Part shown: positions 19,175 through 46,901 of the stretch, piece by piece
Numbering within the stretch: position 1 is the first letter of the stretch
Layout: the number at the start of each line of letters is the position of its first letter
NCBI GenBank assembly: GCA_021810905.1
Contig: JAJZQH010000003.1
Location: 1,897-65,896, forward strand
Source of the DNA: a bacterium
GTDB lineage: Bacteria; UBA10199; 2-02-FULL-44-16; JAAZCA01
Direction of reading: 5' to 3'
Length of the DNA stretch: 64,000 bases
The notes under the pieces: generated by a model
Databases searched by the model: none
Told to the model about the DNA's origin: nothing
The model's input: the letters and a program-made list of their open reading frames with translations, nothing else
Translations under genes and position numbers: made by a program

Positions 19175-21808
19175 CTACAGCAACTCTCTCAACACGGAAG
19201 CATATGGACCTTTCGCTATCTTTTCGAGGGCCGAATGCGAGAGCCGCCGGATCCTTTCTTTGCTCAAGCCGAGCATGCCTCCCACTTCCTCATGCGTATG
19301 ACCTGCGAGGTGGCATTGGAGCACTATGATTTTTTCCCTGTCGCTCAATCCCGATCCCTCAATCGCCATGTCGAGTTTCGTGATGGCATCGCTTCGAAGC
19401 GCGAGATGATCCGGCCCGACCTCTCCCAAATCGGTCACCCGGCCTTCCAACGTGAAATCACCATCTTCTTCGTCCAGCGGCGCAGAGAAGGAGACTTCCC
19501 GCCTTGCTGCCGCTCCCCGCTGTATCATCATTTTAAAGAGCGTCAACGAGAGCGAACGCTTGACATAGGTCTCAAAACTCGCGATCGAGGGATCATAGCG
19601 TTGCGCCAGCTTGTGGAGCTCAATCCTTCCTGCCTGGAGAAGCGCCCCAAAGCTCATGTTCGCCCCGCCAAACCTTGTCATCACGGAAGAAGCAATGCCC
19701 GCCATCAACGGCTCATAAAAAAAGATCAGGTGATCGAGTGCCTGCCGGTCGCCGGACTTGGCCATCCAGAGGAGAAGCATCTTCTCACGCTGATCCAGAA
19801 ATATTCCGCCGCCGCTCCTTCGCTTTGTCGTTATCGTCGAATAGACGTCCATCCCATAGTGCGAAAACGCCCAATCGATCATCCGCCCTTCACTTTCTGA
19901 ACCGCGCCACAGATTGCGGAGATAACCATAGAGGCCCATCAATCCCGAGTTCCTCTCTCCAACATGCGAGCGAAAATCTCCCTGCACGATGCCAGCTGCA
20001 TCCTTTGCGCCCGCTTCGCACATCATTCCAGCGAGATAAAAAGCAATGACCGAATCAGGCACGCGGCGCCAGCCCGAGAGCTTCCCGCCTCTCCGCTCAG
20101 CCAGACGAAGCTGCAGCGCAAATGGCATTTCTTCGGCTGCGGATACACCACAATAATCCAGGATTTTATCGACTACCACTCTCGAATCGTCAGGTGTCTT
20201 CCTCAGACTAAAATGCGTGTAGAGACCTTTCAGCGATTGACCGATCTCCGGGACGACCGTACTCTCCATCTCGCGACAGGAAACAAACCTAACGTGAGGC
20301 AGGCCATTGAGTTCCTGCACCCTCTCCATAAGGCGCAGAATCGTCGCGAGGGGAACCTTCTCCCACGGCCAATTCCTGTTATATCGCAAACAGAGGCACT
20401 GTTGTTCGTAGGAAAGATCTTCAAACCTCTCAACTCCGAGTTGATCGAGCATGAAATCCAGCGCAGAACCTCCGTAGCCTTCCGGAACCCTGAGCCAATA
20501 ATGTTCAAGCAAGCCTGAGAGCGTCGCGCCGAGCTCATCGAGCACGATCTCATTCAGTTTCTTACCTGGCATCGCCCTCAGATGCGGACATTTCAAACCG
20601 TTCTGCTCGGGTAAGAGTCCTCTGGCTATCTCCAGCAGTTTCACCTGCGTGGAAGCAGGCATTCTTTCCCATTTTATGAGTTCGCACTCTAGAAGACCCT
20701 TCAGCTGCACATCCCAGGGAAGGATCTCAAATGACGGAACGCCCACATCATCAAGCAGTGCATCGATTATTCTGCGGGCCTCTTTTCCCCGGTTGAGATA
20801 ATTATTATACAGTCCAATCAGTGTAGAACTGAGTTCTGGCATTTCGATGTCCCTGAAGTGGTCGAAAGTCAAAAACCTCGGATGCACAACGCCAGCCTCA
20901 TTCGCCAAGCGAAAAAGCAGATGTCGCTTAAGCTCCACGCTAATTTTATCCCAGTGGATACGCTGATAACGCAGCCCGATGAATCTCGCCTGTTCCGCCA
21001 GAGACAATTCCTCAAACCTCTGCACTCCTAAATGATCGAGCATGAAATCCACGATCCCGCCTGCACCGTGTTCGTCCGTCCACATCCGAGAATAATGTTT
21101 GTAAAGCCCTTGGCACTGCGCTTTCCATCCCGGCAACCTCATTTTGAAATGATCGAATCCCAGCAGGCGAGGATGTGGCAGGTTTTGAACCAGCGCCATC
21201 TGCTCGAGTATTCTGACCTGTGCACTGAGAGAGAGATGAGAGACATTCTTAAAGGGAGCGGAATCAACCCGCAACCGGTCGATCTCTGCCTGAATGCGCA
21301 ACTCCTCCATGGGATGATACGTGTATCGAAAGGAGCCGAGTCCGCGGGTCCCGAATTTCAGGCAGATATCAGCTATGGAGACGCTTGCCCCCTCGATCAG
21401 CGCGAGCGCCGATGCGACGAGCATCTTTGCGGGTTCGAAAGAGAGTATTCCCAGGATATGGGCGTCATGCGCGATAATGATCGCGTGAGAGGGAGAGTCA
21501 AAGCCGTGGAGTTTGAGCGCATCGCGCGTCATCGGGCTGCTCTCGTCGACAAAACGCATTGCTTGCCGATCGAGCGCCCTCCGGATCTCGGCCGGCGTCT
21601 GCCGGTGTGATCCATCTCGCTCCCCGTATTCATCCGCGGACGACGGCGTTGCAGAGTGCTCTTCGGTGTCAACGCCGCAGGATTCAAGCTCCTGGGATTC
21701 GGCGCAGGGCGGTATCTCGTCGAGGGCAGCTGTCTCTTCAGCAAGGACTAAGCTCCCCAACAGCTCCAGCTGCGAAGCGAGGTCTCCTGTAGATTGCAGC
21801 GCGGCCAT
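19175..21808 (-). CDS. Sigma-70 family factor (regions 2 and 4) fused to ~690-aa N-terminal extension with five tandem ~100-aa repeats
   Basis: C-terminus: region 2-like DHLIFFYEPLMAGIASSVMTRFGG...ALLQAGRIELHKLAQRYDPSIASFETYVKRSL and region 4 HTH LSDREKIIVLQCHLAGHTHEEVGGMLGLSKERIRRL. N-terminal repeats recur with core (I/A)(V/L)DFMLDxLGVxRFE(E/D)LS. Confidence 0.6.
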   Translation of the reverse strand: MAALQSTGDLASQLELLGSLVLAEETAALDEIPPCAESQELESCGVDTEEHSATPSSADEYGERDGSHRQTPAEIRRALDRQAMRFVDESSPMTRDALKLHGFDSPSHAIIIAHDAHILGILSFEPAKMLVASALALIEGASVSIADICLKFGTRGLGSFRYTYHPMEELRIQAEIDRLRVDSAPFKNVSHLSLSAQVRILEQMALVQNLPHPRLLGFDHFKMRLPGWKAQCQGLYKHYSRMWTDEHGAGGIVDFMLDHLGVQRFEELSLAEQARFIGLRYQRIHWDKISVELKRHLLFRLANEAGVVHPRFLTFDHFRDIEMPELSSTLIGLYNNYLNRGKEARRIIDALLDDVGVPSFEILPWDVQLKGLLECELIKWERMPASTQVKLLEIARGLLPEQNGLKCPHLRAMPGKKLNEIVLDELGATLSGLLEHYWLRVPEGYGGSALDFMLDQLGVERFEDLSYEQQCLCLRYNRNWPWEKVPLATILRLMERVQELNGLPHVRFVSCREMESTVVPEIGQSLKGLYTHFSLRKTPDDSRVVVDKILDYCGVSAAEEMPFALQLRLAERRGGKLSGWRRVPDSVIAFYLAGMMCEAGAKDAAGIVQGDFRSHVGERNSGLMGLYGYLRNLWRGSESEGRMIDWAFSHYGMDVYSTITTKRRSGGGIFLDQREKMLLLWMAKSGDRQALDHLIFFYEPLMAGIASSVMTRFGGANMSFGALLQAGRIELHKLAQRYDPSIASFETYVKRSLSLTLFKMMIQRGAAARREVSFSAPLDEEDGDFTLEGRVTDLGEVGPDHLALRSDAITKLDMAIEGSGLSDREKIIVLQCHLAGHTHEEVGGMLGLSKERIRRLSHSALEKIAKGPYASVLRELL

Positions 21809-21882: not shown

Positions 21883-23010
21883 TCACGGATTATCGGAGCG
21901 CCGTCGTCGGAAATCCTCGAGAAATTCCGCTAGAGGCATTTTGAATTCGCCTGATCCGCCGTTCGCCATCGAGTTCCGCCACATCAATCCAGCAAGGCGC
22001 TGCTGAACGCCCTCGTCCTCTATGACGAGCGCTTCCAGGAGCAGGTTGCGACCGCCTTGCGCGCAGTTCGAGAGAATGAATAAGAGCGGGGCATCATTGC
22101 GCATTTCAAGACGTTCCCGCATCTTTCGCAGATTTGCGAGCAGCGAATTGAAAACCTTCACCGCATTCTTGTTGCCGATGAAGACAATATCGCGGTTCAT
22201 CAAACCGCCCAATCCAGGGGTTTCGCCGGTTTTCAGCCAAAGCTCAAGAGAGCAGCGAAAGCCGTGCTCCCCATAGACCGTCGCAAATCCGGGTCGCAGC
22301 TCAAAGCCCGCGTACCTCATCATCTCGAAGAGCGCTACGTGGAACCCTGGTCTCCACGTATCGTCATCAAAGACGATGAGCATGGAACCGCCTTCCGAGA
22401 TCCGCCTTTCGCATCCGCACAGGAGCTCATGCATCCTGGTGAGGTACATACGATCGAATGTGTGCAGGGGATCCATCTCCCAGTCCATCGCCTCAGGGTG
22501 TACCCACGTCACCAGATCAAAGGTCTCAAGAGAGTCGCCATCATCCGCAAGGCCCTCAATAAATCCGGATTGCACCATCCCACATCCGTCTCCGGCACGG
22601 ACCTGATGAATCTTTCCCTCAGGATCGTCCCCAAGAGCGCACTGAAACTCTTTGAGATTGATCCTGGCGCCCTCCAATTTCCAACTCAAGACATCAAATC
22701 CGATAGTCTTCACGAGACCCGGAAGCGCCAGTCTCATCCCCAAATTCTCGTACCATTTCCCCGCGCCGACCGAAAGTACGGTGCGCGCCTCACACTTCTT
22801 TCCGACTTCCTGATAGAGGAGTATTTGCGCGGTATCGTAATACAATCTTGGGACGAGTTCGTCGGCGCCTCCGCCATTATAGAAATGTTGATAGAGCCTC
22901 AGCAGATCATACCGCTGCGCAGCGACAAGCTGTTCGACCGAGAAGTGATCTCTGCTTGCAGACAGTGCCCGCGGCACTGAGTCCCTCAACTCGATATTTT
23001 TTTGAATCCA
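21883..23010 (-). CDS. Hypothetical protein (start uncertain; track ORF reads through an upstream MITE copy to 23403)
   Basis: Track ORF 21883..23403 includes in-frame translation of the repeat element (ENECSPRQAAGYHRQH...). Likely true start is a GTG/TTG just downstream of the element. Weak Rossmann-like VLSVGAGKW. Confidence 0.4.
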   Translation of the reverse strand, partial: WIQKNIELRDSVPRALSASRDHFSVEQLVAAQRYDLLRLYQHFYNGGGADELVPRLYYDTAQILLYQEVGKKCEARTVLSVGAGKWYENLGMRLALPGLVKTIGFDVLSWKLEGARINLKEFQCALGDDPEGKIHQVRAGDGCGMVQSGFIEGLADDGDSLETFDLVTWVHPEAMDWEMDPLHTFDRMYLTRMHELLCGCERRISEGGSMLIVFDDDTWRPGFHVALFEMMRYAGFELRPGFATVYGEHGFRCSLELWLKTGETPGLGGLMNRDIVFIGNKNAVKVFNSLLANLRKMRERLEMRNDAPLLFILSNCAQGGRNLLLEALVIEDEGVQQRLAGLMWRNSMANGGSGEFKMPLAEFLEDFRRRRSDNP

Positions 23011-23031
23011 TTGCGGGAGTTCAATGAGATG

Positions 23032-23152
23032 GTTCCCCGCAGCTTGCTGCGGGGTTTCCGCCACCATCTCCCTTGAGGGGAGAGGGAAGGGTGAGGGTGA
23101 TCGTCGATGTTGCCGGTGATACCCCGCGGCTTGCCGCGGGGAGCATTCATTT
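23032..23152 (-). repeat. MITE-like ~130-bp repeat element, inverted copy
   Basis: Reverse complement of the element at 46753..46900, 52425..52554 and 55829..55958. Hairpins CCCCGCAGCTTGCTGCGGGG, CTCCCTTGAGGGGAGAG, CCCCGCGGCTTGCCGCGGGG. Confidence 0.75.
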
Positions 23153-23485
23153 TCCGGAGCCGACTGTTCGCGATCGCGCGTGACTGGCAGTCGCGGAGTA
23201 ACCGGCCCAGGCGCGCCACGATATTGATCGCCAACCGCCACATATTCCGACGCCACGTCATTCAGGCATATACCCTGACGGGAATCGGGCAGCGGTATAA
23301 TATCATCGTCGCAGACCACGAACACTTCCTCTGCACCGGATTCCTCTGCAGGCAGCCCGTCTGCCGCGGCCATTACATCGAGATTTAACGGTTTTACGGT
23401 CATATATCTCCTGCCCTGACGACATGGACGTTATCGCAGAATTCCTGAAAAAGTTGCTCGATATTCGCACCCAAATCCGACACTT

Positions 23486-23625
23486 GAATTATCACTCAAA
23501 TCCTCCCTCCCTTGATGGGAGGGAGTTTGAGGGAGGGTGACCATGAAGACTTTCGTCACCCAAGGAATGAGTACCACCCTCTCCCTAACCCTCTCCCATC
23601 AAGGGAGAGGGAATTTTTTGTGTCG
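23486..23625. repeat. Degenerate/variant copy of the stem-loop repeat family
   Basis: Two hairpins CTCCCTCCCTTGATGGGAGGGAG and CCCTCTCCCATCAAGGGAGAGGG, related to the central CTCCCCTCAAGGGAGAG hairpin of the main element. Confidence 0.5.
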
Positions 23626-23695
23626 GATTTCAGCGCAAAAAAACCCGCAACTTCTTCCCGGCTGCAGCCGATACACGCCGTAATCGAGGAATTCA

Positions 23696-25210
23696 ATGAG
23701 CACTACATTCACTCCAGGTATCGGCGGTTTTCCCGGCGTGATTTCGCCGCAGGAAGGCGTGGATAGCGTCATCCTAACCTCTACGGGCGATTATGACTTC
23801 GCCTGCGAACGCCCGGCGGAGGATGCTGCCGGCGGAAATCTCGGACTCATCGCCATCGACCACGCGCTCGAAGATGCCGGATTTGATCCGGAAAAGATCA
23901 GCACCATCTATCGCGGGAAAAAACGCAGGCCTCATCTCGATACTGAACGTACGCGGATCGTGGAAGGAATGCGCGCATTGGGCGCCGGAGAAAAAGGCGC
24001 GGTCATAGGCATCTCCACCACGACCGACGAATATTTCAGATTTGCCCCGCTCGCAAAACTCCTCAGAATGGCGTTTCCGGACGCCACCCTCATCGCGGGC
24101 GGGGCGCACTTCGTGCGCGAGCGCATCGGCGGATTCGCGGACCCGGTAGAGACTGCGCTCATGATGGGGCTGGTTGACGCCGTTGTGGTGGGACACGCGC
24201 AGCCGTTCGTAGACCTGGTCGTCAAGCACGGAGGCAGAATCGAAGAGGTCGATGCGCCTGGCTTCTATCGGCTCGATCCTGTTTCAAAGCGCGTCACGGG
24301 TCGCGGCAAGGGGAAATTTCCCGACCTGAACAAACTCACTCTTCTCTACGATCCGGTGTCGATGGGCATCCGCACGATGCTCGCCGACGGCTGCAGAAAC
24401 GGCTGCAATTTCTGCACGGTGGCGGGCAGGCCGGTCGCGCTCTTCGATCCCGAGATCGTCGTCAGGGACTTAAGCGCCGCACTACTTGAGCATCAGGACT
24501 TTCGCATCTCGCTCTATGATTCCAATCCGCTCGAACCCGCGCTTCGGAATTTCTATCGCAGCGTCTTTCTGGCGCTTGATGAAACAAACCAGTCCCGAAA
24601 ATTCGCCTATATCGATCCTGCCACGCTGGCCCACGATTTTCTGGAATCTCTGAACACCATATCGTTCGGCACGATCTGGTCCTTCAACGCGGGCCGCGAC
24701 GCGGTAACCGAGAAGCAGGCACGCGCGATCGGCACGAGGTATAAAGGAAAATATAAGGACCAGCGGATGCTCGACGCGGAGAAGAAGGCGCTGATCGAAT
24801 TCATCGATGCCATGAAGATGCTGAAAAAGCTCTATCCCGAAGAGCCGCCGTTCGGCCTGATGCTCTCCTATATCGTGACGCCGTTTGAAACCAGGCAGTC
24901 GGCGATGGCGATGTACGAAGAGATGCGCGAGTTCCTGGCGCTGGCCGACAAATCGATCGTGTTCCGCTTCGCCGTGCATGCCCTCAGGCCCTATCCGGGA
25001 ACGACCCTCAGAAATAAATATTCGAGTGTCATCGACATGGAAGAATTCAATTTCCGCCTCGACCTGGGCGACAGGATCTCGCCGTGGAAGAAGGGCGCGG
25101 CCCCAGCCCTCGCCTTTCATCGTGCAGTGACGATGATTCCCCCGGTCAACGATCAGACAGACTACCTCAAGGCCTTCAAGCGCGCCATTAACACTCATCT
25201 TCCCCGGTGA
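23696..25210 (+). CDS. Radical SAM-like protein with N-terminal B12-binding-like domain (paralog of 31766..33244)
   Basis: 504 aa. CxxxCxxC in MLADGCRNGCNFCTVAG. Conserved blocks shared with paralog: SVILTSTGDYDF, LIAGGAHFVRERIGGFADPVETAL, HAQPFVDLVVKHGGR. Confidence 0.6.
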   Translation: MSTTFTPGIGGFPGVISPQEGVDSVILTSTGDYDFACERPAEDAAGGNLGLIAIDHALEDAGFDPEKISTIYRGKKRRPHLDTERTRIVEGMRALGAGEKGAVIGISTTTDEYFRFAPLAKLLRMAFPDATLIAGGAHFVRERIGGFADPVETALMMGLVDAVVVGHAQPFVDLVVKHGGRIEEVDAPGFYRLDPVSKRVTGRGKGKFPDLNKLTLLYDPVSMGIRTMLADGCRNGCNFCTVAGRPVALFDPEIVVRDLSAALLEHQDFRISLYDSNPLEPALRNFYRSVFLALDETNQSRKFAYIDPATLAHDFLESLNTISFGTIWSFNAGRDAVTEKQARAIGTRYKGKYKDQRMLDAEKKALIEFIDAMKMLKKLYPEEPPFGLMLSYIVTPFETRQSAMAMYEEMREFLALADKSIVFRFAVHALRPYPGTTLRNKYSSVIDMEEFNFRLDLGDRISPWKKGAAPALAFHRAVTMIPPVNDQTDYLKAFKRAINTHLPR

Positions 25211-25408
25211 TCGGAAGATCGCTTTCTTCGATAAAGACGCACTCGCAGAGCTCCTTAAATAATTCGACTTGAATTCATTATCAGGGAGTCTAGAATCCGC
25301 CCCATTCATAACCTTTCCCGATTGTTCTCAGCTTAAACGGTTGAACTATGTATGGGCATTCAGGCGTCCAATTGTACGGGTACATGTGGCGAGAGGAGTT
25401 AACGAATC

Positions 25409-27145
25409 ATGCAGAATGCGGGCATATTCTTTGACGTCGCAGAGATCGCATCGTTTCTTGTCATCCTCACCTTACTTGTGAAGCCGCTGGGCGTCTACAT
25501 GGCGCGGGTCTTTGAGGGCGAGAAGGTCCTGCTGAGCCCCGTGATTTCCCCGATAGAGCGGCTCATCTGCCGCATCGCCGGCATCCGACGCGACGACGAG
25601 ATGGACTGGAAGCAATACGCGCTCTCCATGCTCGTCTTCAATGCATTGGGAATCGCCGTGTTACTTGCGATCCTTCTCCTGCAGGGGATGTTACCGCTGA
25701 ACCCGCAGCACCTCCCCGCGTTTTCCTGGGACCTTGCGATCAACACGGCCGTGAGCTTTGTCTCCAATACGAACTGGCAGGCCTACGGCGGCGAATCCGC
25801 CGCGAGTTACGCCACGCAGATGGCGGGCCTCACCGTGCAGAACTTCCTCTCCGCCTCAACCGGCATCGCGGTCGCAATCGCGCTCATCCGCGGGTTCGCG
25901 CGGAGATCGGCGCAGACGATCGGCAACTTCTGGCTCGATATCACAAGATGCGCGCTCTACGTCCTCCTTCCGCTGGCATTCGTATTTTCTATATTTCTCG
26001 TATCGCAAGGCGTGATCCAGAACTTCAGTCAGCCCGTGAAGGCGTCGCTCGTGGAGCAGTATCACTCATCGGAGGAAAAGGTAGTTTCCGAACAGATCAT
26101 CCCGATGGGACCCGTGGCGTCTCAGGAAGCGATCAAGATGCTTGGCACAAACGGCGGCGGTTACTTCAACGCCAACTCCGCGCACCCGTTCGAGAATCCC
26201 ACCCCGCTGACGAATTTTTTTGAAATCCTCATGATGGCGCTCATCGCCGCATCCCTCACCGCTACGTTCGGATACATGGTGGGCGACTCAAAGCAGGGCT
26301 GGGCCATCTATACTGCGATGATGATCATCTTCATCGCCGCGATCGGCATACTCTACTGGGCCGAGGCGAGCGGCAATCCCATACTGCACGGTCTTGGCGC
26401 CTACGGACCGTCGATGGAGGGAAAAGAGGTGCGCATGGGCCTCGGAGGCACAACCCTCTTCAGCGCGACGACCACCGCGGAATCTTGCGGCGCTGTAAAC
26501 GCCATGCACGATTCGCTCACGCCCGTCGGCGGCATGGTCTCGATGACGCTCATGCTCCTGGGAGAGGTGGTGCTGGGCGGCGTCGGCTCCGGCCTCTATA
26601 CCATGCTCGCATTTGCGATCACCGCGGTATTCATAGCAGGTCTCATGATCGGCAGGACGCCGGAGTATCTGGGCAAGAAGATCGAGGTCTTTGAGATCTG
26701 GTCGTCCATGACCACGATCCTCTCCGCGGGAATAGTTGTACTCGTCACCGTGGCTATTGCGCTGAGCACCGAGGCAGGGCTCTCCTCTATCATGAATCCC
26801 GGCGCGCACGGGCTCTCCGAAATCCTCTATGCTTACGCGTCGGCTGCGAATAACAACGGGAGCGCATTCGCCGGGCTCAACGCCAACACAGTCTTCTACA
26901 ATCTGACGACCGCCGCGGCTATGCTCGTGGGGAGGTTCGTACCGGCGGTTGCGGTGCTTGCGCTGTCCGGGTCGCTCGTGAAGAAGAAATACATCCCTCC
27001 GAGCGCCGGCACGCTGCCCACGCACCAGACGGCCTTCGTACTCTGGCTCGTGATCGTGGTGATGATCGTGGGCGCGCTCACGTACTTTCCCGCGTTGTCG
27101 CTGGGTCCGATCATCGAACATATAATAATGAATGGAGTCCGGTGA
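25409..27145 (+). CDS. kdpA: Potassium-transporting ATPase subunit A
   Basis: 578 aa polytopic membrane protein with KdpA-typical N-terminus and selectivity-filter-like TNGGG segments. Immediately upstream of kdpB. Confidence 0.9.
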
Positions 27146-27146
27146 C

Positions 27147-29213
27147 ATGGATATTATTCAGAAAAAATCCCATAAATTTTTTCAAAAGGCGCTCCTCTGG
27201 TCCGCGTTCCTCGATTCGCTCAGGAAGCTCTCGCCCAGGCACCTATTGAGAAATCCGGTCATGCTCGCGGTGGAGCTTGGCAGCGTCGTCACGACCGTGA
27301 ATTTCGTCGTCGGATTTTTTTCCAGACCTGCCGATCCGGCATGGTTCACCGGCCTAGTCTCCGTCTGGCTCTGGCTCACGGTCCTGTTTTCGACTTTCGC
27401 GGAATCGCTCGCCGAGGGCAGAGGCAAGGCCCAGGCCGACTCGCTGCGAAAGACGCGTACGGAGGTAATGGCCAAGAAGTTGAAAAGACCGGAACCCGGC
27501 GCCGAATATTCCCTCGTTCCTTCGGACAAACTCATGAAGGGCGACTTCGTCCTCGTAGAGGCGAACGACCCGATTCCCAGCGACGGCGAAGTGATCGAAG
27601 GCGCCGCGCTCGTGGACGAGTCGGCCGTCACCGGGGAATCGGCGCCGGTCGTGCGCGAATCGGGCGGGGACCGGAGCGCCGTCACAGGCGGCACCAAGGT
27701 CATCTCCAACCACATCATCGTGCGCATAACGGTGGACCCCGGTGAGACGTTCCTCGACAGGATGATATGCATGGTCGAGGGCGCGAAAAGGCGCAAGACG
27801 CCGAACGAAGTCGCGCTCGAAGCGCTCCTCCTCGCAATCACCGTGGTCTTTCTGCTCGTCGTGGTGAATCTCAATCCGCTCTCCGCGTACAGCGCGCACG
27901 TGGCCGGCCGCGGTAGCGCGGTCTCGCTCACGGTGCTCGTCGCGCTCTTCGTCTGTCTCGCGCCGACTACCATCGCTGCGCTGCTGCCGGCTATCGGCAT
28001 CGCCGGAATGGATCGCCTCTTTCAGCGCAACGTGATAGCGCTCTCAGGCAAGGCGATCGAGGCCGCGGGAGACGTGAACGTGCTTCTGCTCGACAAAACC
28101 GGCACGATCACGCTCGGCAACCGGCAGGCGGTGGAATTCACGCCGCTCGGCGAGCACACCGATCACGAAGTCGCGGAGGCGTCGCTCATGGCGTCTCTCA
28201 CGGACGAGACGCCCGAGGGCCGAAGCATCGTCGTGCTCGCAAAGCAGAAGTACAATCTGCGCATGCACGAGATGCCTGCTGGAGCCCGCTCCATCCCGTT
28301 CACCGCGCAGAATCGGATGAGCGGCATCGACGTCGACGGGCAGTCTTATCGCAAGGGTGCGCCCGACTCTATCGCAAAGAGCATCGCGAGTCAGGGAAAG
28401 TCCGTACCCGATGGGCTGGATCGCTGCCTCGCGGATATAGAGGGCACCGGTGGCACACCGCTGGTCGTGATGAAAAATGACGAAGTCATCGGCGTGATCC
28501 ACTTGAAGGACATCGTCAAGGGTGGAATCCAGGAGAGATTCGCGGCGCTGCGCAAGATGGGGATCATGACGACGATGATCACCGGCGACAGCTACCTCAC
28601 CGCAGCCACTATCGCTGCCGAGGCCGGCGTGGACGATTTCCAGGCGCAGGCTAAGCCGGAGCAGAAGCTGCACTGGATACGCGGCTATCAGGCCAACGGA
28701 TACATGGTCGCCATGACAGGCGACGGAACGAACGACGCGCCGGCGCTCGCGCAGGCGGACGTCGCCGTTGCGATGAACACGGGCACGCAGGCCGCACGCG
28801 AGGCCGCCAACATCATCGACCTCGATTCCAATCCCACCAAGCTCATGGATATCGTGGAGATCGGAAAGCAGCTGCTCATGACGAGGGGCTCGCTCACCAC
28901 GTTCAGCATCGCCAACGACATTGCAAAATACTTCGCCATCATCCCCGCGGCGCTCTTCACCATCTATCCGCAACTGGGCGTGCTTGGACTGATGCGCCTG
29001 GCTAACCCGCATACGGCGATACTCTCCGCGGTCATTTTCAACGCGATCGTTATACCGCTGCTCATACCGCTGGCGCTCAAGGGCGTGAAATACCGGCCGA
29101 TGCCCGCGGAGAAGCTTTTGATCTACAACCTGCTCGTCTTCGGTGCGGGCGGCATAATCGCGCCGTTCATAGGCATAAAGCTTATCGACATGGCGATATC
29201 GCTGTTCGTTTGA
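27147..29213 (+). CDS. kdpB: Potassium-transporting P-type ATPase subunit B
   Basis: P-type ATPase motifs [26 protein letters not shown] 27147 after GGAG. Follows kdpA stop by 1 nt. Confidence 0.9.
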
Positions 29214-29223
29214 GGTGAATGAA

Positions 29224-29811
29224 ATGCGAAGAATAAAAACCGCACTGATCCTCTTTGCGCTGCTGGCGATAATAACCGGCGGAATCTATCCGGCGATCGT
29301 TACGCTCGTCGCGCGAACGGCGTTTCCCGCTGCGGCACGCGGCAGCCTGATCTTTGATGCCGGCGGCAACGTGCTCGGTTCCTCGCTCATCGGTCAGCAA
29401 TTCTCGGATGCGAAATACTTCTGGCCGCGGCCATCGTCCACGGCGGATCATCCGTACAACGCGATGGCCTCCGGCGGCTCGCAGCTCGGGCCCACCAATC
29501 CCGAACTCGCCCGCGAAGTATCGGAGAGGATTGACGCGCTGAAGGCCGCCGGCGTCTCCGCGCCCTTTCCTTCGGATCTCGTGACTTCGTCCGCAAGCGG
29601 TCTCGATCCGCACATCTCGCCTGAAGCGGCGCTGGTACAGATACCCCGCGTAGCAAAGGCGCGCGGAATGAACGAAGATGATATTCGCTCGATCGTCTTT
29701 AGAATGATCGAGGATCGGGCGCTGGGATTTATCGGAGCGCCGCGCGTCAACGTGCTTCAGCTCAATATCAAGCTGGGCGACATGGAAGGCAAAGCTTATG
29801 GGAAACGATGA
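29224..29811 (+). CDS. kdpC: Potassium-transporting ATPase subunit C
   Basis: KdpC family, single N-terminal TM helix. Track start GTG 29215; ATG 29224 with GAGGTGA SD preferred. Confidence 0.85.
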   Translation: MRRIKTALILFALLAIITGGIYPAIVTLVARTAFPAAARGSLIFDAGGNVLGSSLIGQQFSDAKYFWPRPSSTADHPYNAMASGGSQLGPTNPELAREVSERIDALKAAGVSAPFPSDLVTSSASGLDPHISPEAALVQIPRVAKARGMNEDDIRSIVFRMIEDRALGFIGAPRVNVLQLNIKLGDMEGKAYGKR

Positions 29812-31729
29812 AGAGAGAAGGCCTGAACCCGAATCGCTATTGGAGCTATCTCGCGAGGAAGAGGGAAAGGATCGCGGCAAGCTCACGATTTATTTCGGCG
29901 CCGCGCCCGGCGTGGGAAAGACCTACTCCATGCTCTCCGACGCCAGGTTGAAGAAGAGGGACGGCGTGGACGTGTTGGTCGGCTACTACGAAGCCCACGC
30001 GCGCCCCGAAACTGAGGCGCTGCTTGAAGGCCAGGAAATAATACCGCCGAGGAAGATTGAATATCGCGGCATGGCTCTCAAGGAGATGGACCTGGAGGCC
30101 ATACTCAAGCGCAAACCCGCGCTCGTGCTCGTGGACGAGCTCGCGCACACTAACGCGCCGGAGTCGCGGCACGTCAAGCGCTACCAGGACGTGGAGGAGC
30201 TTTTGGACGCGGGCATCGACGTCTATGCCACGCTCAACGTCCAACACCTGGAGAGTGTCAGCGACCTCATCTTCCAGATCGCGGGCATCCGCGTGCAGGA
30301 AAAAATTCCGGATACGATCTTTCAGTCCGCCGACGAGGTGAAGCTAGTCGATCTCCCCTACGAGGAGCTGCTCCAGCGGCTCAACGAAGGGAAGGTCTAC
30401 GTGAAAGGGATGGCCGAAGAGGCGCTCCGCCGCTTCTTCCAGCCGAGCAATCTCCTCGCGCTCAGACAGATGGCCATGCGCCTCTCGGCGGGACGCGTTG
30501 ACGAGCGCATGCGCATCTACATGCGCGCTCACGCGATCGCGGGGCCCTGGCCCATCTCCGAACGAATACTCGTGAGCGTCTATGCGAGCCCGTATGCGGA
30601 GCGGCTCGTGCGCTCCACGTTCAGGCTCGCATCCGAAATGAACGCGGAATGGGCGGCTATCTACGTGGAAGGCCCGGAGCACGCCCGCCTCTCGGACGAA
30701 GAAAAACGCTGGCTCGAAAACGCGATGGACATCGCGCGCAAGCTGGGCGCGCAGATCGTCTGGACAAAAGGCGACGATCCGGCCGACGAGATCTCCCGCT
30801 ACGCGCAGAACAACAACGTCACCAAGATCGTCATGGGAAAACCCGGGAGGCTCTGGTTCTTCCCCACCATCGTGCGCAAGATCATGTACCGCACCCGCAA
30901 CATCGACATCTTTCTCTTTGCGAGCGAAGGGAAGGACGAGGTCCGTCCGATTCGCGCGAAGCGGCGGCGCGGTTTCAAACTCCGCAATTATCTTTTGGGC
31001 CTTCTCTCCGTTGCTATCGTATCGGGCATCGGCTTTATGCTGAGGGATGTGATCGGTGAGATGAACATCCTCTTCATGATGCTGCTTCCGGTAATCTGGA
31101 CCGCCATCTACCTCGGGAGGGGCGCTTCGATCATAACGGCTCTGGCAAGCATTGTGGCGTTCGATTTCCTCTTCGTCCACCCCTACTACACCTTTACGGT
31201 CCACGAGATCGGAGACATGATTTCATTTTCAGTGTACCTGATCGTCGCCGTTGTCATCAGCAACCTCGCTTCCAAGCTGCGCTACAGGGTTGGTCTGCTC
31301 GCGCAGAGCGAATCGCGCAGCGTAGCGCTATGCGACGCGAGCAGACATCTCGTCACCGCGCGAAACGTGGATCAGGTACTCTCCCTTCTCATCAACCGCG
31401 TGAAGGCGATCCTTCCGTGCGAGGTCGCGATACTGCTTCCCAGCGGCGCACAGCTCTCGGTGGAGGCGGCGACGCCCGAATTCAAGATCGATCAGAAGGA
31501 GCTCTCCGTCGCAACGTGGGTATGGCTGAACGGCAAGAACGCGGGACAGGCCACCGAGACCCTGCCGCAAGCATGGGCCCACTACCTGCCGATGAGGACG
31601 TCCGACGGGATCAAGGGCGTGCTGGGCGTGCACCTCGACGATCCAAAGGAATTCCTGACGCCCGAGAACGACGCAGTGCTCGACGCGCTAGCGGGCCTCG
31701 GAGCGACGGCGATAGAGAGGATAGGGTAA
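29798..31729 (+). CDS. kdpD: KdpD N-terminal sensor protein (KdpD-N + Usp + TM + GAF), lacking histidine-kinase domains
   Basis: KdpD N-terminal P-loop GAAPGVGKTYSML. Usp-like region. Four TM helices. GAF-like C-terminus. ORF ends after GAF (…GLGATAIERIG) with no HisKA/HATPase. Confidence 0.8.
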   Translation: MGNDEERRPEPESLLELSREEEGKDRGKLTIYFGAAPGVGKTYSMLSDARLKKRDGVDVLVGYYEAHARPETEALLEGQEIIPPRKIEYRGMALKEMDLEAILKRKPALVLVDELAHTNAPESRHVKRYQDVEELLDAGIDVYATLNVQHLESVSDLIFQIAGIRVQEKIPDTIFQSADEVKLVDLPYEELLQRLNEGKVYVKGMAEEALRRFFQPSNLLALRQMAMRLSAGRVDERMRIYMRAHAIAGPWPISERILVSVYASPYAERLVRSTFRLASEMNAEWAAIYVEGPEHARLSDEEKRWLENAMDIARKLGAQIVWTKGDDPADEISRYAQNNNVTKIVMGKPGRLWFFPTIVRKIMYRTRNIDIFLFASEGKDEVRPIRAKRRRGFKLRNYLLGLLSVAIVSGIGFMLRDVIGEMNILFMMLLPVIWTAIYLGRGASIITALASIVAFDFLFVHPYYTFTVHEIGDMISFSVYLIVAVVISNLASKLRYRVGLLAQSESRSVALCDASRHLVTARNVDQVLSLLINRVKAILPCEVAILLPSGAQLSVEAATPEFKIDQKELSVATWVWLNGKNAGQATETLPQAWAHYLPMRTSDGIKGVLGVHLDDPKEFLTPENDAVLDALAGLGATAIERIG

Positions 31730-31765
31730 TGAAGAGTGTCGTTTCCTGCTTTCCCCGTAGGTCCG

Positions 31766-33244
31766 TCATCGCGGCAGGTAGCGGAGGATCGCGTCCTCAA
31801 AGTGCGGCAGATAGTCGTCGAGCCTCATCGGCGCGTCGCGATGTGTGACCTCGCGCATGAACCTGAGCGAAGGGCAGGCGTCTCTCTTCCAGGGCGAGAT
31901 GCCGACGCCATCGTCGCGGTCAAAGTCAAAATCCTCCAAGTCGATCGCGTCCGCGAGCCGCGCGCGCAGCGCCGTTCCCGGATAGGGCATGAGCGCCTGC
32001 ACCGAGAGGCCCACCTCCATTTCCGGCGTCGAGAGATCGAGAAACTCCCGCATATCGTCCAGCATCGCCAACGCGGAATCGCGCGTCATAAAGGGCGTTG
32101 TGATATAGGAGAGCGTGAGTTTCCGGGGGACGGCGGCGCTCGCCTTCCGTCGGCGCAGAAGCATGGCTCCGATGAAATTGCGCAACGCGGTTTTCTCCTC
32201 GTCGAGCGTGTGCTGATCCTTGATCTTTCCAAGGTATTTCGTCCCGATCACCCGCGCGTCCTCTTCCAACACGGCGTCACGGCCGGCGTAGAAATACCAG
32301 CAGCCGTACCTCTCAGCTCTCTCGACGACGCGATAAAAATTCTTCAGGAGCGCCGACGGATCGAGATAGACCGCCTTGAGCGAGCGATCCTCGCCTTCAA
32401 TCCTGTCGAAAATTTCGCGATAGAAGTCGTCGAGGTGCGGTAAGAACGGATTGGAATCCGTGAGAGAGAACGTGTGCACGCCCTCCCGGAGCATGGCCCC
32501 GAGCCCACACGCCACGATGTCAACCGTCAGATTCGGAGGCCGTCTCCCCGTGATGAAGCAGAAGTCGCACCCGTTACGGCACTGATCTGCAAGCATCGTG
32601 ATCACCTCTCCTTCGCCCGCGTCACCGCTGGAGGGGAGCCTCCCGACGCGAGGATAGAACCCTGTGCCGCGGCCCACGACCTTGTGATATACAGGATCGA
32701 GCTGATAAAAGCCGGGTGTCGTGACATCCTCTCTCCTGCCCCGGTGCTTGACGACGAGATCCACGAATCCCTGTGCATGTCCGCACACTGCCGCATCGGC
32801 CAACCCCATGCCGAGCGCCGCCTCGACCGGATCCGCGAATCCGGCGATCCGTTCGCGCACGACGTGCGCTCCGCCGAGGACGATCTGGACGCCGGGAAAG
32901 GCCCGCCTGAGCAGCGGCGAAAGCACGGCAAGGACGTGGTAACGGCTCGATGTCGTGGAGATGCCCATGACCGCGCCCGACTCCGCGGCGCCCGCGCTCC
33001 GGAACGCATCGACGACGGCGCTGCTGCCGCCGGAGAGGTCATAGGGCCGGGATGCGTGGGGCTTCAGGATCACGGCGTCTTTGAACCCCTCAGTGATCAG
33101 GGCCTCTTTTATGGTTTCGAGCCCGAGGTGTTCGGAGGCGGCATCCGCGGGCCTCGCAGGGTCCAGCTCAAAATCGCCGGTCGAGGCGAGGATCACCGAA
33201 CTCACATCCGGCTGCGGCATGATGATGGCAGGGGCCATGGGCAT
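31766..33244 (-). CDS. Radical SAM-like protein with N-terminal B12-binding-like domain (paralog of 23696..25210)
   Basis: 492 aa. CxxxCxxC in MLADQCRNGCDFCFITG. About 45% identity to the 23696..25210 product across the full length. Confidence 0.6.
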   Translation of the reverse strand: MPMAPAIIMPQPDVSSVILASTGDFELDPARPADAASEHLGLETIKEALITEGFKDAVILKPHASRPYDLSGGSSAVVDAFRSAGAAESGAVMGISTTSSRYHVLAVLSPLLRRAFPGVQIVLGGAHVVRERIAGFADPVEAALGMGLADAAVCGHAQGFVDLVVKHRGRREDVTTPGFYQLDPVYHKVVGRGTGFYPRVGRLPSSGDAGEGEVITMLADQCRNGCDFCFITGRRPPNLTVDIVACGLGAMLREGVHTFSLTDSNPFLPHLDDFYREIFDRIEGEDRSLKAVYLDPSALLKNFYRVVERAERYGCWYFYAGRDAVLEEDARVIGTKYLGKIKDQHTLDEEKTALRNFIGAMLLRRRKASAAVPRKLTLSYITTPFMTRDSALAMLDDMREFLDLSTPEMEVGLSVQALMPYPGTALRARLADAIDLEDFDFDRDDGVGISPWKRDACPSLRFMREVTHRDAPMRLDDYLPHFEDAILRYLPR

Positions 33245-39402: not shown

Positions 39403-40374
39403 TTAAGGACAGAAGGTCATGAGGAACTGCGTATTGCCGGCGCAATTGTGCAGCCCCACGACATCATCATATGAATACGCATACACGCCGCCGGTGCACA
39501 TGCTGTGTATGGCTGCCACGTATTTTGTCGCAGCCACGGGACCCGCGCGGCAGGCGCCCGGGTCGATTGGAGGAGTCGGGCAGCAGTACATCACGGCAGC
39601 GTCGCCCTGCTCGGAGAGGCCCTCGCCGTTGTATCCTGTGTTGTTGGGCCAGTTGAGTTTCTTGCACGGAGAATAGCACCCAAGCGCGGTGTCGGGACTT
39701 GCCGCGTCGAGGACCCTCAGATCCTCGTTGTTATACTCGGGATGCACATCTACCTGTCCCTGGCTTAAGTTCTCGTCGGTCGGGCAGCCGCTTAGATTGA
39801 GGTTTGTGCAGTCGATGGTATTGCAGGAAGAGCAATCCGCGTTGATGCAGGTTGAACCTCCTCCGCCGACGATGGTGACTTTGTAAGGCAAGGAATAACC
39901 GTCGACAGCGCTCGTGTCCCAAGAGGTGATCGGCGGGAGCTTCTGTGCCGGCGCAGAGGGATTCACCGCGCACTGCGTGGGATCGGCATTGGTGCAACCC
40001 CACGTGGCCTCAAATTTGGAATCAATGGGCGGGGCACAGCCTGCTGCCGGGCACGGGTCCGAGCTCTGACCCAACGAGCAGTTCTGGCTGTTGGCATCGC
40101 AACCTGTCTTGGGCCAGAAGCGCGTCGACGCAAGCCCTATATCAGGAATGTTGTAATCCACGTATCCGCCCTTGGCCAATTGAGTGACGGCGGCAGTTCC
40201 GGTGGGCATGTTCGATTGCTGGATCCAGATCGTATAAGAGCAGTTGTTGACGATTCGGAAGAGCGCGGTCTGCGTGGGAAGTCCGCCGCCGCCCCCGCCG
40301 CTGCCGCTTCCTCCTCCACAGCCGAAGCAGAACGCCAATGCGATTATAAGAGACAATGGGCGAAAAATTCTCAT
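39403..40374 (-). CDS. Thaumatin-like (PR-5/osmotin family) lipoprotein
   Basis: Lipobox FCFGCGG. Thaumatin family hallmarks: N-terminal beta-strand FRIVNNCSYTIW, multiple conserved Cys pairs, CCPTPP, GVYAYSYDDVVGLHNC, C-terminal FLMTFCP. Confidence 0.7.
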   Translation of the reverse strand: MRIFRPLSLIIALAFCFGCGGGSGSGGGGGGLPTQTALFRIVNNCSYTIWIQQSNMPTGTAAVTQLAKGGYVDYNIPDIGLASTRFWPKTGCDANSQNCSLGQSSDPCPAAGCAPPIDSKFEATWGCTNADPTQCAVNPSAPAQKLPPITSWDTSAVDGYSLPYKVTIVGGGGSTCINADCSSCNTIDCTNLNLSGCPTDENLSQGQVDVHPEYNNEDLRVLDAASPDTALGCYSPCKKLNWPNNTGYNGEGLSEQGDAAVMYCCPTPPIDPGACRAGPVAATKYVAAIHSMCTGGVYAYSYDDVVGLHNCAGNTQFLMTFCP

Positions 40375-40481: not shown

Positions 40482-41147
40482 TCAACTCGGCTTGCTGTGG
40501 CGCACATCCCTCCCCTTTGCCGTGAATATCGCGAGTTCCGCGATATTGGTGGAGTGATCCGCCATTCGTTCGAGATAGCGGACGATCGAAGTCGCCGGAA
40601 ACAGCCGGTTCAGATTTTCAGGCTCCTTTTCTGCGCGCTCCAGCAATTCCTTCACGTAATACTCGGTGAGATCGTCCACCACGTCGTCGTTATTGAGCAC
40701 TCCCTCGGCCTTTGCCGCGTTGGAGTTGACGAACGCGTCGATGCTGTCCTTGAGCATCATCTGCACATTGTTCGACATCTGAGTGAGATCGATAGGTGAG
40801 TCCCCGTGCTTCACGATATCTATCACGCGGCTCGCCGTGTTGACGGCTAGGTCCCCCACGCGCTCCAGATCCGTCACTATCTTTAGGCCGCGTGTGATAA
40901 AGCGCAGGTCCCACGCCGCGGGCTGGTAGCGCGCAAGCAGCTCTATGCACTGTTCGTCGATGGATACCTCCAGCGCGTTGACCGCATGATCGCTCTCGAT
41001 TATCTGCTGCGCGAGGGCCGTATCGCGCGAGGCCAGGGCCTTCATGCAATCCGCAACCATCGCCTCAACTTTGGATCCCATGAGCAGGATCTGCTGCTTG
41101 AGCGCCTCGATTGCCTCGTCAAAGTGACGATCGATGTGGTGTTCCAT
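40482..41147 (-). CDS. phoU: Phosphate-specific transport system accessory protein PhoU
   Basis: Two PhoU repeats (…RDTALAQQIIESDHAVNALEV… and …DVVDDLTEYYVKEL…). 221 aa. Immediately downstream of pstB. Confidence 0.9.
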   Translation of the reverse strand: MEHHIDRHFDEAIEALKQQILLMGSKVEAMVADCMKALASRDTALAQQIIESDHAVNALEVSIDEQCIELLARYQPAAWDLRFITRGLKIVTDLERVGDLAVNTASRVIDIVKHGDSPIDLTQMSNNVQMMLKDSIDAFVNSNAAKAEGVLNNDDVVDDLTEYYVKELLERAEKEPENLNRLFPATSIVRYLERMADHSTNIAELAIFTAKGRDVRHSKPS

Positions 41148-41155
41148 GATTCCTC

Positions 41156-41908
41156 CTATCCATAGCGTCCGGATATATAGTCTTCAGTGCGTTCGTCGCG
41201 CGGCGCGGTGAAGAGCTGCGTGGTCTTTCCGAATTCTATGAGTTCGCCGAGCAGCATAAAACCGCAGTCCTCGGAGACGCGCGCGGCCTGCTGCATGTTG
41301 TGCGTAACGATGACGATCGTGTATTCGCTCCTGAGGTCCTGCATCAGCTCTTCGATGTGCGCGGTGGCTATAGGGTCGAGCGCCGAGCACGGCTCGTCCA
41401 TGAGCAGGATCTCGGGCTTTGTGGCGAGCGCCCTCGCGATGCAGAGGCGCTGCTGCTGCTCGCCCGAGAGGGAGAGCGCGCCCGTCTTGAGCTTGTCCTT
41501 GAGATCCTCCCACAGCCCCACTCCCGTGAGGCATTTCTCGACTGTCTCCTCCACCTGCGACCTGTTGCCGATACCGTGGATTCTCATCCCGTAAGCGATG
41601 TTCTCGAAAATGTTCAGCGGAAACGGATTCGGGCGCTGGAAGACCATGCCTACGGTCCTGCGCAACTTGAGGATATCCTCATCGAGCAGCGGGCGACCCA
41701 GCACGCTCACGTCTCCCGTGATGCGCACGCCGGGGATGAGGTCGTTCATGCGGTTGAATACGCGAAGCAAAGTGGACTTGCCGCAACCCGAAGGTCCGAT
41801 GATCGAGGTGATGCGTTTGGGCGCAATGGAGACGGACACGGACTTCAGCGCATGGAAGTCGCCATAGAACAAGTTCAGGTCTGTGCAGGTTATGGAATCC
41901 ATCCTCAT
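41156..41908 (-). CDS. pstB: Phosphate ABC transporter ATP-binding protein PstB
   Basis: Walker [18 protein letters not shown] signature, PstB-typical length 250 aa. Overlaps upstream paralog by 4 nt. Confidence 0.9.
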
Positions 41909-42669
41909 CCAAACTTTCCAGTTACGTAATCCTCGGTGCGTTTGTCGCCCGGGGCGGTGAAGATCTTATTTGTATCGTCTACCTCTATCAGTTTTCCCAT
42001 GAGCAGAAAGGCCGTGCGGTCGCCCACTCGCGCTGCCTGCTTCGTGTTATTCGTGACGAGGATCAGCGTGTGCCTCGCCTTGAGTTCCTTCATCGCCTCT
42101 TCCACCTTTGCGGTGGAGATCGGGTCGAGGCCAGAGCACGGCTCGTCGAACATTATCACTTCGGGGCCCACCGCGAGCGTGCGCGCGATGCAGAGCCTCT
42201 GCTGCTGCCCGCCGGAGAGCTTCACCGCCGAACTGTCGAGCCTGTCCTTGACCTCGTCCCAGAGATAGGAGGCTACGAGCGTCTGCTCCACGAGATCGTC
42301 GGATGCCGATTTTCGAAGCCTGCGCACGAGTCTGGGTCCGAAGAGGATATTGTCGCGTATGCTCATGGGAAGCGGTATCGGCATCGCATAGACCATTCCG
42401 ATGCGCCGCCGCAACTCCTGGACGTCCCTGATTGCAGCCACGTCCTGCCCGCCCAGAAGAACGCTCCCTTCCACCGTGGCGTTGGTGACGCGCTCTATCA
42501 TACGGTTGATCGCCATGAGCAGCGTCGACTTGCCTGAGTTGGCCGGACCGATAATAGAGAGGATTTCGTTCTCCGCGATGTTGAGGGTCACCCCTTGCAA
42601 GGCAACTGCATCGCCGAATCTCACGCTGAGATCCAAAATTTCTATCTTGTTCTTCATGCGCGCCGTCAT
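41905..42669 (-). CDS. pstB: Second PstB-like phosphate ABC transporter ATPase (tandem paralog)
   Basis: Walker [18 protein letters not shown]. 254 aa. Sits between pstA and the other pstB. Confidence 0.85.
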
Positions 42670-43508
42670 GCCGCCCTCCGGCCGCGCATCAAGCGATGCA
42701 TCATCGTGTACGCCGTTATGTTGATGACGAGTATCGTGCAGATAAGGACGGCGGCCGTTGCGTACGCGTTGTCGTTCGATATCCCCTCACGCGCCAGGAT
42801 GTAAAAATGCACGGACATCGTGCGCGCGGAATCGAAGAGCGAGCGCGGCATCTGCACGGCGGAGCCCGCGGTGAATATGACGACTGCGGTCTCTTCTATC
42901 GAGCGGCCGATACCGAGGATTACGCCGGTGAGTACGCCTGGCAGCGCGTACGGAAGCACGGCGCGCGTCACTACCTGCCAGCGCGTAGCGCCGAGCGATG
43001 CGGCCACGTCGCGATAGTTGCGAGGCACCGCGCGCATTGCCTCTTCCGCCGTGCGGATGATGGTGGGCAGCACCATCGCGGCGAGCGAGAGGCCGCCGGA
43101 GATTATCGACCACCCGAAACCCAGCATAACCACGAATAGGATGAAGCCGAAGAGTCCGAATATTATCGATGGAACGCCCGCAAGGCAATTGATGCCGAAG
43201 CGGATCGTCTGCGTGACCTTGCCCTCCTGCGTGTATTCAGCGAGATAGATCGCTGAGGCGATGCCGAGCGGAGCCGCGATACCTATCGCCACGAACACCA
43301 TGAGGATCGTGCCCACGATGGCGGGCAGGATGCCGCCCGCGCGGCCCATATCCAGAATCGGCTCTGTGAGGAATGCCCACGTCACGTGCTTGAGGCCGCC
43401 TACCAGCACGAAGCCTATAACGAAGACGAGCGCCGCAACTGCCGACGCGCACGCGAGCGTGAGTGAAATCTTCGCGATCTTCTGCGTTATGGACGGCGGA
43501 ATGCGCAT
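42666..43508 (-). CDS. pstA: Phosphate ABC transporter permease PstA
   Basis: 280 aa polytopic permease with EAA-like loop. Position after pstC. Confidence 0.85.
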   Translation of the reverse strand: MRIPPSITQKIAKISLTLACASAVAALVFVIGFVLVGGLKHVTWAFLTEPILDMGRAGGILPAIVGTILMVFVAIGIAAPLGIASAIYLAEYTQEGKVTQTIRFGINCLAGVPSIIFGLFGFILFVVMLGFGWSIISGGLSLAAMVLPTIIRTAEEAMRAVPRNYRDVAASLGATRWQVVTRAVLPYALPGVLTGVILGIGRSIEETAVVIFTAGSAVQMPRSLFDSARTMSVHFYILAREGISNDNAYATAAVLICTILVINITAYTMMHRLMRGRRAA

Positions 43509-44390: not shown

Positions 44391-44510
44391 GCCTTCGTCG
44401 CCTCAGACGCCGGCTCCTCGTCTGCCCTCCGGACGCCGCGTTATTAGAGGCTTAGAAAGCGGCGTCCTCCGAGCGCCGAGAAAACTCCATCCCGTCGCTC
44501 GCCTCCAGAG

Positions 44511-45332: not shown

Positions 45333-45394
45333 ATGCCTCCGTTTTGTTATCAAGCAATTGAGTAATGAACCAACATGAGTCACATGTTCGAAAT

Positions 45395-45412
45395 TTGTTA
45401 AAAAAATGTTAA
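45395..45412 (-). promoter_or_regulatory. Candidate Pho box (TTAACAT-TTTT-TTAACAA, 7+4+7 direct repeat) upstream of pstS
   Basis: On - strand the sequence TTAACATTTTTTTAACAA has the 11-bp-phased direct-repeat architecture of PhoB sites. Similar TAAC(A/G)AT repeats upstream of porin and phoA. Confidence 0.35.
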
Positions 45413-45442
45413 GGCGGCTTTATCGTCATAAAGCAAGGCATT

Positions 45443-46591: not shown

Positions 46592-46682
46592 CTAACGCTC
46601 CTTTCCTCACATTGAAAGTGCTCGTGATTGACGACGAGGATGACCTGCAGGACTGCGCCACGACCTGGACAATATAGATCAA

Positions 46683-46725: not shown

Positions 46726-46752
46726 ATGCGTGAACTTGTAGCTCATCAAGAC

Positions 46753-46900: not shown

Positions 46901-46901
46901 A

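Follow-up and report, generated by a model that had tools for sequence, protein, structure and literature searches.

The N-terminal domain of KdpD was previously reported to be an atypical serine kinase, which phosphorylates Ser162 of KdpB and inhibits the KdpFABC pump at high K+ (Silberberg et al., 2024, Nat Commun 15:3223, PMC11018627). In Escherichia coli KdpD, the catalytic elements are a Walker A motif (G-X5-GKT), the Walker B residues D109/E110, and the adenine-binding pair W39/R190, and the isolated N-terminal domain was sufficient in vitro. K+ stimulated the serine kinase activity when full-length E. coli KdpD was embedded in the membrane, and an engineered E. coli KdpD without residues 663–894 (no DHp/CA) retained both phosphorylation and inhibition in vivo (PMC11018627). 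Natural proteins without the kinase half are treated in the same study as a named class, 'Truncated DHpCA domain'. The study counts the class in 61 of 5495 species, 54 of the 61 being without KdpE, notes it for Campylobacterota and Archaea, and lists Methanoregula boonei; its supplementary tables also contain a class 'Truncated DHpCA domain + TM, GAF, DHpCA domain' (TM, transmembrane). In our study, we examined a kdpD gene without its histidine-kinase half, present in a stretch of 64,000 nucleotides from an uncultured bacterium (assembly GCA_021810905.1, contig JAJZQH010000003.1, positions 1,897 to 65,896 of the forward strand). This whole stretch, 64 kb long, is called the window, and the coordinates of the features are given in Table 1. 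By its sequence, the protein encoded by this gene is a natural, conserved member of the described 'truncated DHpCA' class, with a clean stop at the domain boundary. By analogy with the described proteins, we consider it probable (about 70%) that it works on its own as a membrane-bound serine kinase responsive to K+, which is co-expressed with the pump and would shut KdpABC off through the TGES serine of KdpB without His-Asp signalling.

A Pfam scan of the window KdpD found KdpD_N, Usp, DUF4118, and GAF_3 in that order, all above the gathering cut-offs, and the four modules all matched solved KdpD domains by sequence (2R8R, 7JI4, 2KSF, and 4QPR). No Pfam match to HisKA or HATPase_c was found in the 643 amino acids of the protein. 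An earlier note on this DNA, made from the letters alone, had described the same content (a KdpD N-terminal domain, Usp-like, four-TM, and GAF regions, ending before any HisKA/HATPase domain), and the scan bore this out. The protein was 35% identical to E. coli KdpD (894 amino acids) and collinear with it over residues 1–645. Its C-terminus (...AIERIG) aligned with ...ALERL of the E. coli protein and was 24 residues short of the column of the phospho-accepting His673. The window KdpD shared the four modules, the Walker motifs, and the type of Usp motif with full-length E. coli KdpD, whereas it had no H-box, no HATPase domain, and no kdpE after the gene, and contained tyrosine in place of Trp39. 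Against the NCBIfam model of canonical full-length KdpD (NF007793/PRK10490) the protein scored 535.1 bits, below the cut-off of 1123, and covered positions 2–645 of the 895 in the profile. The score against NF038185 ('KdpD-like non-kinase potassium sensor'), a family of proteins of about 373 amino acids with KdpD_N and Usp only, was 364.9 bits, over residues 8–375 only, and was also below the cut-off (550).

The engineered E. coli KdpD lacking residues 663–894, which still mediates the phosphorylation of KdpB Ser162, comes very close to this natural protein in its construction. Described members of the 'truncated DHpCA' class, among them Methanoregula boonei A7I6Q3 and proteins of Campylobacter species, are similar to the window KdpD in the arrangement KdpD_N-Usp-TM-GAF without DHp/CA, in the position at the operon end, in having no adjacent kdpE, and in the intact Walker A/B motifs. 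The earlier note was right that kinase-less KdpD proteins exist in some lineages. However, the window KdpD was only 42–43% identical to the Methanoregula proteins, which fell in another cluster of a crude neighbour-joining tree. In the available part of the table of cultured species in PMC11018627, Nitrospirota and Desulfobacterota have no 'truncated DHpCA' entry, whereas the relatives of the window KdpD included Nitrospiraceae. The KdpD/Usp-only proteins of cyanobacteria and Deinococcus, which are those of NF038185, are likewise kinase-less, follow kdpC, and keep the N-terminal serine kinase domain. Unlike the window KdpD, they are soluble proteins of about 370 amino acids without TM and GAF domains, and the protein of Deinococcus geothermalis is driven by cyclic di-AMP (c-di-AMP); the window KdpD adds 270 residues of TM and GAF.

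The N-terminal domain contained, besides the Walker motifs, the residue Arg194, which corresponds to R190 of E. coli and was invariant in the clade. All four domains were conserved in the clade, the N-terminal domain most of all, with 87 of 209 columns invariant among 14 sequences, and invariant residues persisted in TM and GAF as well. Over its full length, the KdpB of the window had 60% identity to that of E. coli, and it contained the sequence ...DESAVTGES170APV..., which carries Glu169/Ser170 of the TGES loop. The TGES motif of KdpB is necessary but not discriminating, because it is general to P-type ATPases.

The queries of a six-frame phmmer search over the whole window were E. coli KdpE and two KdpD kinase halves, one of them from E. 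coli. No remnant of a KdpD kinase was found near kdpD in any frame; HisKA/HATPase motifs in an alternate frame downstream, a case considered in the earlier note, were not found. The search returned a single histidine kinase and a single response regulator from the window, the pair at 50154–52274. The regulator (50154–50843) was of the OmpR family, scored best against the PhoB models, and had only 35% identity to E. coli KdpE. The kinase (50847–52274) was an sCache-HAMP kinase for which PnpS/PhoR were the best NCBIfam models. This pair was considered as a displaced KdpE with its kinase and was rejected on the basis of these best models, the 35% identity to KdpE, and its pst-phoU, porin, and phosphatase neighbours; as judged from the same matches, it belongs to the phosphate regulon. 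A complete phosphate-starvation cluster was present at 40482–52274, with phoU, pstB/A/C/S, an OprO/P-type porin, an alkaline phosphatase, a 615-amino acid protein without a Pfam match, and the PhoB/PhoR-like pair. The earlier note was correct in reporting no KdpE in the operon; a convergent gene comes next, and the sole regulator of the window is PhoB-like.

The genomic context of related proteins was surveyed by script at 80 genome loci, and extra loci were looked up. The KdpD proteins of 884–948 amino acids contained a kinase domain (about residues 660–890) at every locus where the contig reached past the gene, and in nearly all cases an OmpR-type regulator (about 230 amino acids) came directly next. 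Every complete KdpD of 643–674 amino acids among the 80 loci had no kinase and no regulator in the available flanks. The short forms of the survey were found in Thermodesulfobacteriota (L003), Dadabacteria (L004), Nitrospiraceae (L005), Methanoregula, Methanomicrobiales, Methanotrichaceae, and Methanomassiliicoccaceae. The arrangement kdpABC-kdpD(short) without kdpE was found in the window, in L003, in Candidatus Methanoperedens (L083), in a JGI contig (L085), in L087, and in about ten methanogen loci. In L083, L085, and L087, kdpA-B-C-D(short) was followed by unrelated genes; L087 contained the closest relative of the window KdpD, with 68% identity. In Candidatus Dadabacteria (PSLL01000015.1; L004, and L084 8001–9959), a kinase-less KdpD of 652 amino acids, 60% identical to the window KdpD, had only unrelated genes around it, and kdpABC was absent from the 8–10 kb on either side; this raises the question of its substrate. 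At locus L088 (4840–9149), a short KdpD of 654 amino acids (P0135) was followed by a DUF4118-GAF-HisKA-HATPase kinase (515 amino acids) and then by an OmpR-type regulator. By its domain content, L088 is a two-chain KdpD system with TM and GAF modules in both chains, and it comes from a different lineage than the window KdpD.

The architecture, the conservation, the catalytic motifs, and the lack of a nearby kinase or regulator were observed directly in our study. The serine kinase activity, its independence of DHp/CA, and its stimulation by K+ are taken from the literature on E. coli KdpD, and we infer that the window KdpD behaves likewise, with K+ as its signal. On this model, kdpD would be translationally coupled to kdpC, so that the protein would be made together with the pump. 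At high K+, the TM and GAF sensing region would activate the N-terminal Walker A/B domain, which would act as an atypical serine kinase and transfer a phosphate from ATP to Ser170 of KdpB (Ser162 in E. coli). The phosphorylation of Ser170 would then turn the KdpABC pump off post-translationally. There would be no His-Asp phosphorelay to KdpE, and the transcription of the operon would be constitutive or under a control unrelated to KdpD.

Several points weigh against this model. The position of W39 in E. coli KdpD is occupied by Tyr43 in the window KdpD, likewise an aromatic residue, and one that does not vary within the clade. The Walker A/B motifs and TGES are common to all KdpD and KdpB proteins, so they indicate competence rather than activity. 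The phosphotransfer to KdpB has been shown only with KdpD of E. coli and of D. geothermalis, and would apply to the window KdpD by analogy; K+ sensing by TM and GAF has been characterised in E. coli only. The search for a kinase and KdpE covered 64 kb of the genome, and the short KdpD of L088 has an adjacent separate kinase and KdpE. Control of the operon at the level of transcription was represented by one weak promoter match only.

It is extremely improbable that the short kdpD is an artefact or a recent pseudogene, that is, a gene cut short by a frameshift error in sequencing or assembly, or a truncated kdpD in decay. The record is a metagenome-assembled genome, and the earlier note had itself raised a frameshift or truncation as an option; however, the window was matched to the metagenome-assembled genome GCA_027327785.1 (contig DAHVYM010000026.1), and an independent Logan assembly of SRR13189623 yielded an identical product of 643 amino acids. 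In a search of 5.8 billion proteins, the best 120 clusters were 54–68% identical to the window KdpD, almost all of 640–656 amino acids, with the same domains and never with a kinase domain. The best clusters and relatives came from Thermodesulfobacteriota, Dadabacteria, Nitrospiraceae, Zixibacteria, Halobacteriota, and Candidatus Methanoperedens. At least 120 clusters from several phyla have a common end point; the C-terminus of all short forms was located 0–25 residues past one shared alignment column, after the GAF domain. The tandem stops of kdpD are followed by only 36 nucleotides before the convergent gene, which leaves no space for a long open reading frame. The six-frame search with the two KdpD kinase halves returned the Pho-type kinase only, and a frameshift or a hidden kinase was therefore rejected. 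With the invariant residues in TM and GAF, these results effectively refute the artefact option. A different case is a two-chain system, in which the window KdpD would be the sensor or serine-kinase chain, while a TM-GAF-DHp-CA kinase and KdpE encoded elsewhere in the genome would control kdp transcription. This arrangement is compatible with the serine kinase role, to which it would add transcriptional control. It has a natural example in P0135 of L088 and a class of its own, noted above, in the supplement of PMC11018627; the expression of kdp is under a separate two-component system in Deinococcus, Anabaena, and Alicyclobacillus (PMC11018627), and the inspected stretch is 64 kb of the genome. 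The first chain of L088 is like the window KdpD in architecture and length, but its second chain and kdpE are immediately downstream, whereas in the window a convergent radical-SAM-like gene takes this place. No such kinase or regulator was found in the 64 kb window, nor within 8–10 kb in five relatives of the same clade, and KdpE is absent altogether in 54 of the 61 'truncated DHpCA' species (PMC11018627). We therefore regard a two-chain system as unlikely. There is no need to assume, as the earlier note did in one of its two options, that kdp regulation depends on a kinase encoded at another place in the genome, because the KdpD N-terminal domain itself phosphorylates KdpB without DHp/CA and most natural proteins of the class occur in species without KdpE.

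The signal could also be c-di-AMP, which would control the window KdpD by binding to Usp, as in the KdpD of Staphylococcus aureus and D. geothermalis, instead of K+ sensed by TM and GAF. The Usp domain of the window KdpD matched the c-di-AMP-bound structure of S. aureus (7JI4, E 1.2e-07), and c-di-AMP stimulates the serine kinase activity of D. geothermalis KdpD (PMC11018627). Two classes of Usp motif have been described, the E. coli type RXXXR-X8-WXAVY and the c-di-AMP type of S. aureus, SXS-X20-FTAXY, in which Ser244 and Tyr271 are needed for binding (PMC4686210). The Usp motif of the window KdpD, R272-xxx-R276-x8-W285-AAIY289, was found to be of the E. coli class (RXXXR-X8-WXA[VI]Y). The region aligned with the S. 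aureus motif contained Y262-A-S264 ... W285-AAIY289; the first serine of SXS was absent, with Tyr262 at the position of Ser244 and WAAIY in place of FTAXY, and the sequence does not conform to the c-di-AMP motif. The window KdpD also keeps the TM/GAF sensing module, which is missing from the c-di-AMP-dependent short forms. Neither a diadenylate cyclase nor a c-di-AMP riboswitch was found within the window. Because the Usp motif is of the E. coli type, K+ acting through the retained TM and GAF domains is probably the input rather than c-di-AMP, and control by c-di-AMP appears highly unlikely.

The relationships of the short forms were examined in a crude neighbour-joining tree of 636 shared columns. 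The window KdpD was found in an all-short cluster of 26 sequences, in which bacterial phyla were mixed with Methanoperedens and Methanotrichaceae. The Methanoregula-type proteins formed a second all-short cluster, and about 15 other short forms were scattered among the full-length KdpD proteins; monophyly of the short forms was not borne out. Parsimony on this tree required at least 17 changes of state between short and full-length. The exact bipartition of the large all-short cluster was recovered in 9 of 30 bootstrap replicates, and because of this value and the crude tree, the count of independent kinase losses is indicative only. For at least one of the singletons, which is part of a two-chain system, the kinase function has not truly been lost. 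The window KdpD was about 61% identical to the Candidatus Methanoperedens proteins. In contrast to this affinity, the nearest named matches of a housekeeping ABC-F protein of the window (53–57% identity) were from unclassified or 'Deltaproteobacteria' metagenome-assembled genomes. This pattern suggests that the kinase half has repeatedly disappeared or become separate, and that the cassette has moved laterally. A more far-reaching proposal is that the kinase-less TM/GAF KdpD, rather than being a sporadic loss-of-function product, is the regulator of a self-contained kdpABC-kdpD cassette, purely post-translational, which has spread laterally between Archaea (Candidatus Methanoperedens and Methanotrichaceae) and several bacterial phyla, and which has targets beyond KdpB in some hosts, such as that of the Dadabacteria copy; we regard this as speculative and rather improbable.

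Among the surveyed loci, matches to KdpC (N-terminal) and KdpA (C-terminal) were found in one open reading frame in L019 (876–3443), L021 (5062–7668), L022 (8–2401), L038 (5447–7882), and L047 (4–2097). These matches suggest that the open reading frames, from Methanoregula and Methanomassiliicoccaceae, encode a KdpC-KdpA fusion, with the order kdpCA-kdpB-kdpD(short).

Table 1. Features of the kdp operon and of the encoded KdpB and KdpD proteins in the 64 kb window (aa, amino acids; nt, nucleotides).
Feature	Position	Strand	Remarks
Candidate sigma-70-like promoter, TTGAAT-16-TAGAAT	25269..25296	+	about 110 nt upstream of kdpA; one consensus match
kdpA, K+-translocating subunit	25409..27145	+	Pfam KdpA, E 7.4e-238
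kdpB, P-type ATPase subunit	27132..29213	+	Pfam E1-E2_ATPase and Hydrolase; DKTGT at aa 321
KdpB TGES motif (aa 167-170)	27630..27641	+	Ser170 = E. coli Ser162 (inhibitory phosphorylation site); Glu169 = Glu161
kdpC	29215..29811	+	Pfam KdpC, E 2.3e-68
kdpD without histidine-kinase half	29798..31729	+	643 aa; KdpD_N, Usp, four TM helices, GAF
KdpD N-terminal domain (aa 26-234)	29873..30499	+	Pfam KdpD PF02702, E 9.8e-91; PDB 2R8R match, E 5.8e-73; proposed site of the atypical serine kinase
Walker A-like motif, G34-AAPGV-G40-K41-T42 (G-X5-GKT), then Tyr43	29897..29923	+	from alignments; invariant within clade
Walker B, Asp113-Glu114	30134..30139	+	align with E. coli Asp109/Glu110; invariant columns
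Usp domain (aa 255-352)	30560..30853	+	Pfam 28.4 bits, cut-off 24
DUF4118 region, four TM helices (aa 398-498)	30989..31291	+	Pfam E 3.5e-24; matches E. coli KdpD TM structure 2KSF
GAF domain, complete (aa 524-641)	31367..31720	+	Pfam GAF_3, profile positions 2-129 of 129; matches E. coli KdpD GAF structure 4QPR
Tandem stops TAA TGA at GAF/DHp boundary	31727..31732	+	TAA at 31727-31729, in-frame TGA directly after

The genes of the operon were found in the order kdpA-kdpB-kdpC-kdpD on one strand. The start of kdpB in the public gene call is at 27147, compared with 27132 in the open reading frame call. The kdpC and kdpD genes overlap by 14 nucleotides, and a Shine-Dalgarno-like GGAAGG element was present upstream of the kdpD ATG. 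No hydrophobic small open reading frame was found in 25211–25408 upstream of kdpA, and the operon therefore appears to be kdpABCD without kdpF; locus L088, by contrast, has a called KdpF. The promoter upstream of kdpA is a candidate, since it is a single match and the count of such matches in the region was not above the shuffle expectation. No riboswitch was found with Rfam in the kdpA leader or in the rest of the window (gathering thresholds over the whole window; E<=1 over 23350–25500), and a ydaO-type c-di-AMP riboswitch or another riboswitch in the leader was rejected as a means of transcriptional control.

The stop of kdpD is separated by 36 nucleotides from the stop of the convergent gene at 31766–33244 (-), which the earlier note had called a convergent rSAM paralog. 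The gene is a paralog of that upstream of kdpA (23696–25210, +), with 48% identity over about 490 amino acids. Both paralogs bracketing the operon contained a CX3CX2C motif and weak Pfam matches to B12-binding or Radical_SAM, and neither had an NCBIfam match. The description of the convergent gene as an rSAM paralog is plausible but weakly supported because the Pfam Radical_SAM and B12-binding scores were below the cut-off. The paralogs bracketing kdpABCD might be the mark of a kdp cassette inserted between duplicated genes. A long hairpin was found at 23490–23630, in the divergent intergenic region between 21883–23403 (-) and 23696–25210 (+). It gave weak miRNA-precursor-like Rfam matches on both strands and contained a terminator-like stem at 23589–23611.

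Other genes of the window included a thaumatin-family protein at 39403–40374 (-) (Pfam E 6e-15), located between phosphoglucomutase and phoU; the family is mostly eukaryotic. The gene at 19175–21808 (-) encodes a protein of 877 amino acids with a C-terminal ECF-type sigma-70 region (about residues 690–866), and its N-terminal part of about 670 residues matched nothing. The proteins encoded at 16386–17618 (-) and 52619–53983 (+) shared 47% identity across about 350 amino acids, and no Pfam family match was found in either.

The current understanding of Kdp regulation is unchanged by this locus. Proteins of this kind have already been described and mechanistically explained, and with the window KdpD the class reaches into further lineages of uncultured bacteria. 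Among the 150 best matches to the window KdpD in a library of representatives at 50% identity, 31 were 625–700 amino acids long and most of the others were 875–925 amino acids, which suggests that the class occurs more often and in a broader range of taxa than the reported 61 of 5495 cultured species would indicate. The main value of the finding is for annotation. Public records name these proteins 'sensor histidine kinase KdpD' or 'DUF4118 domain-containing protein', although none of them can be a histidine kinase. Labelling them as probable stand-alone K+-sensing serine kinases would avoid inferring a KdpDE two-component system that does not exist.

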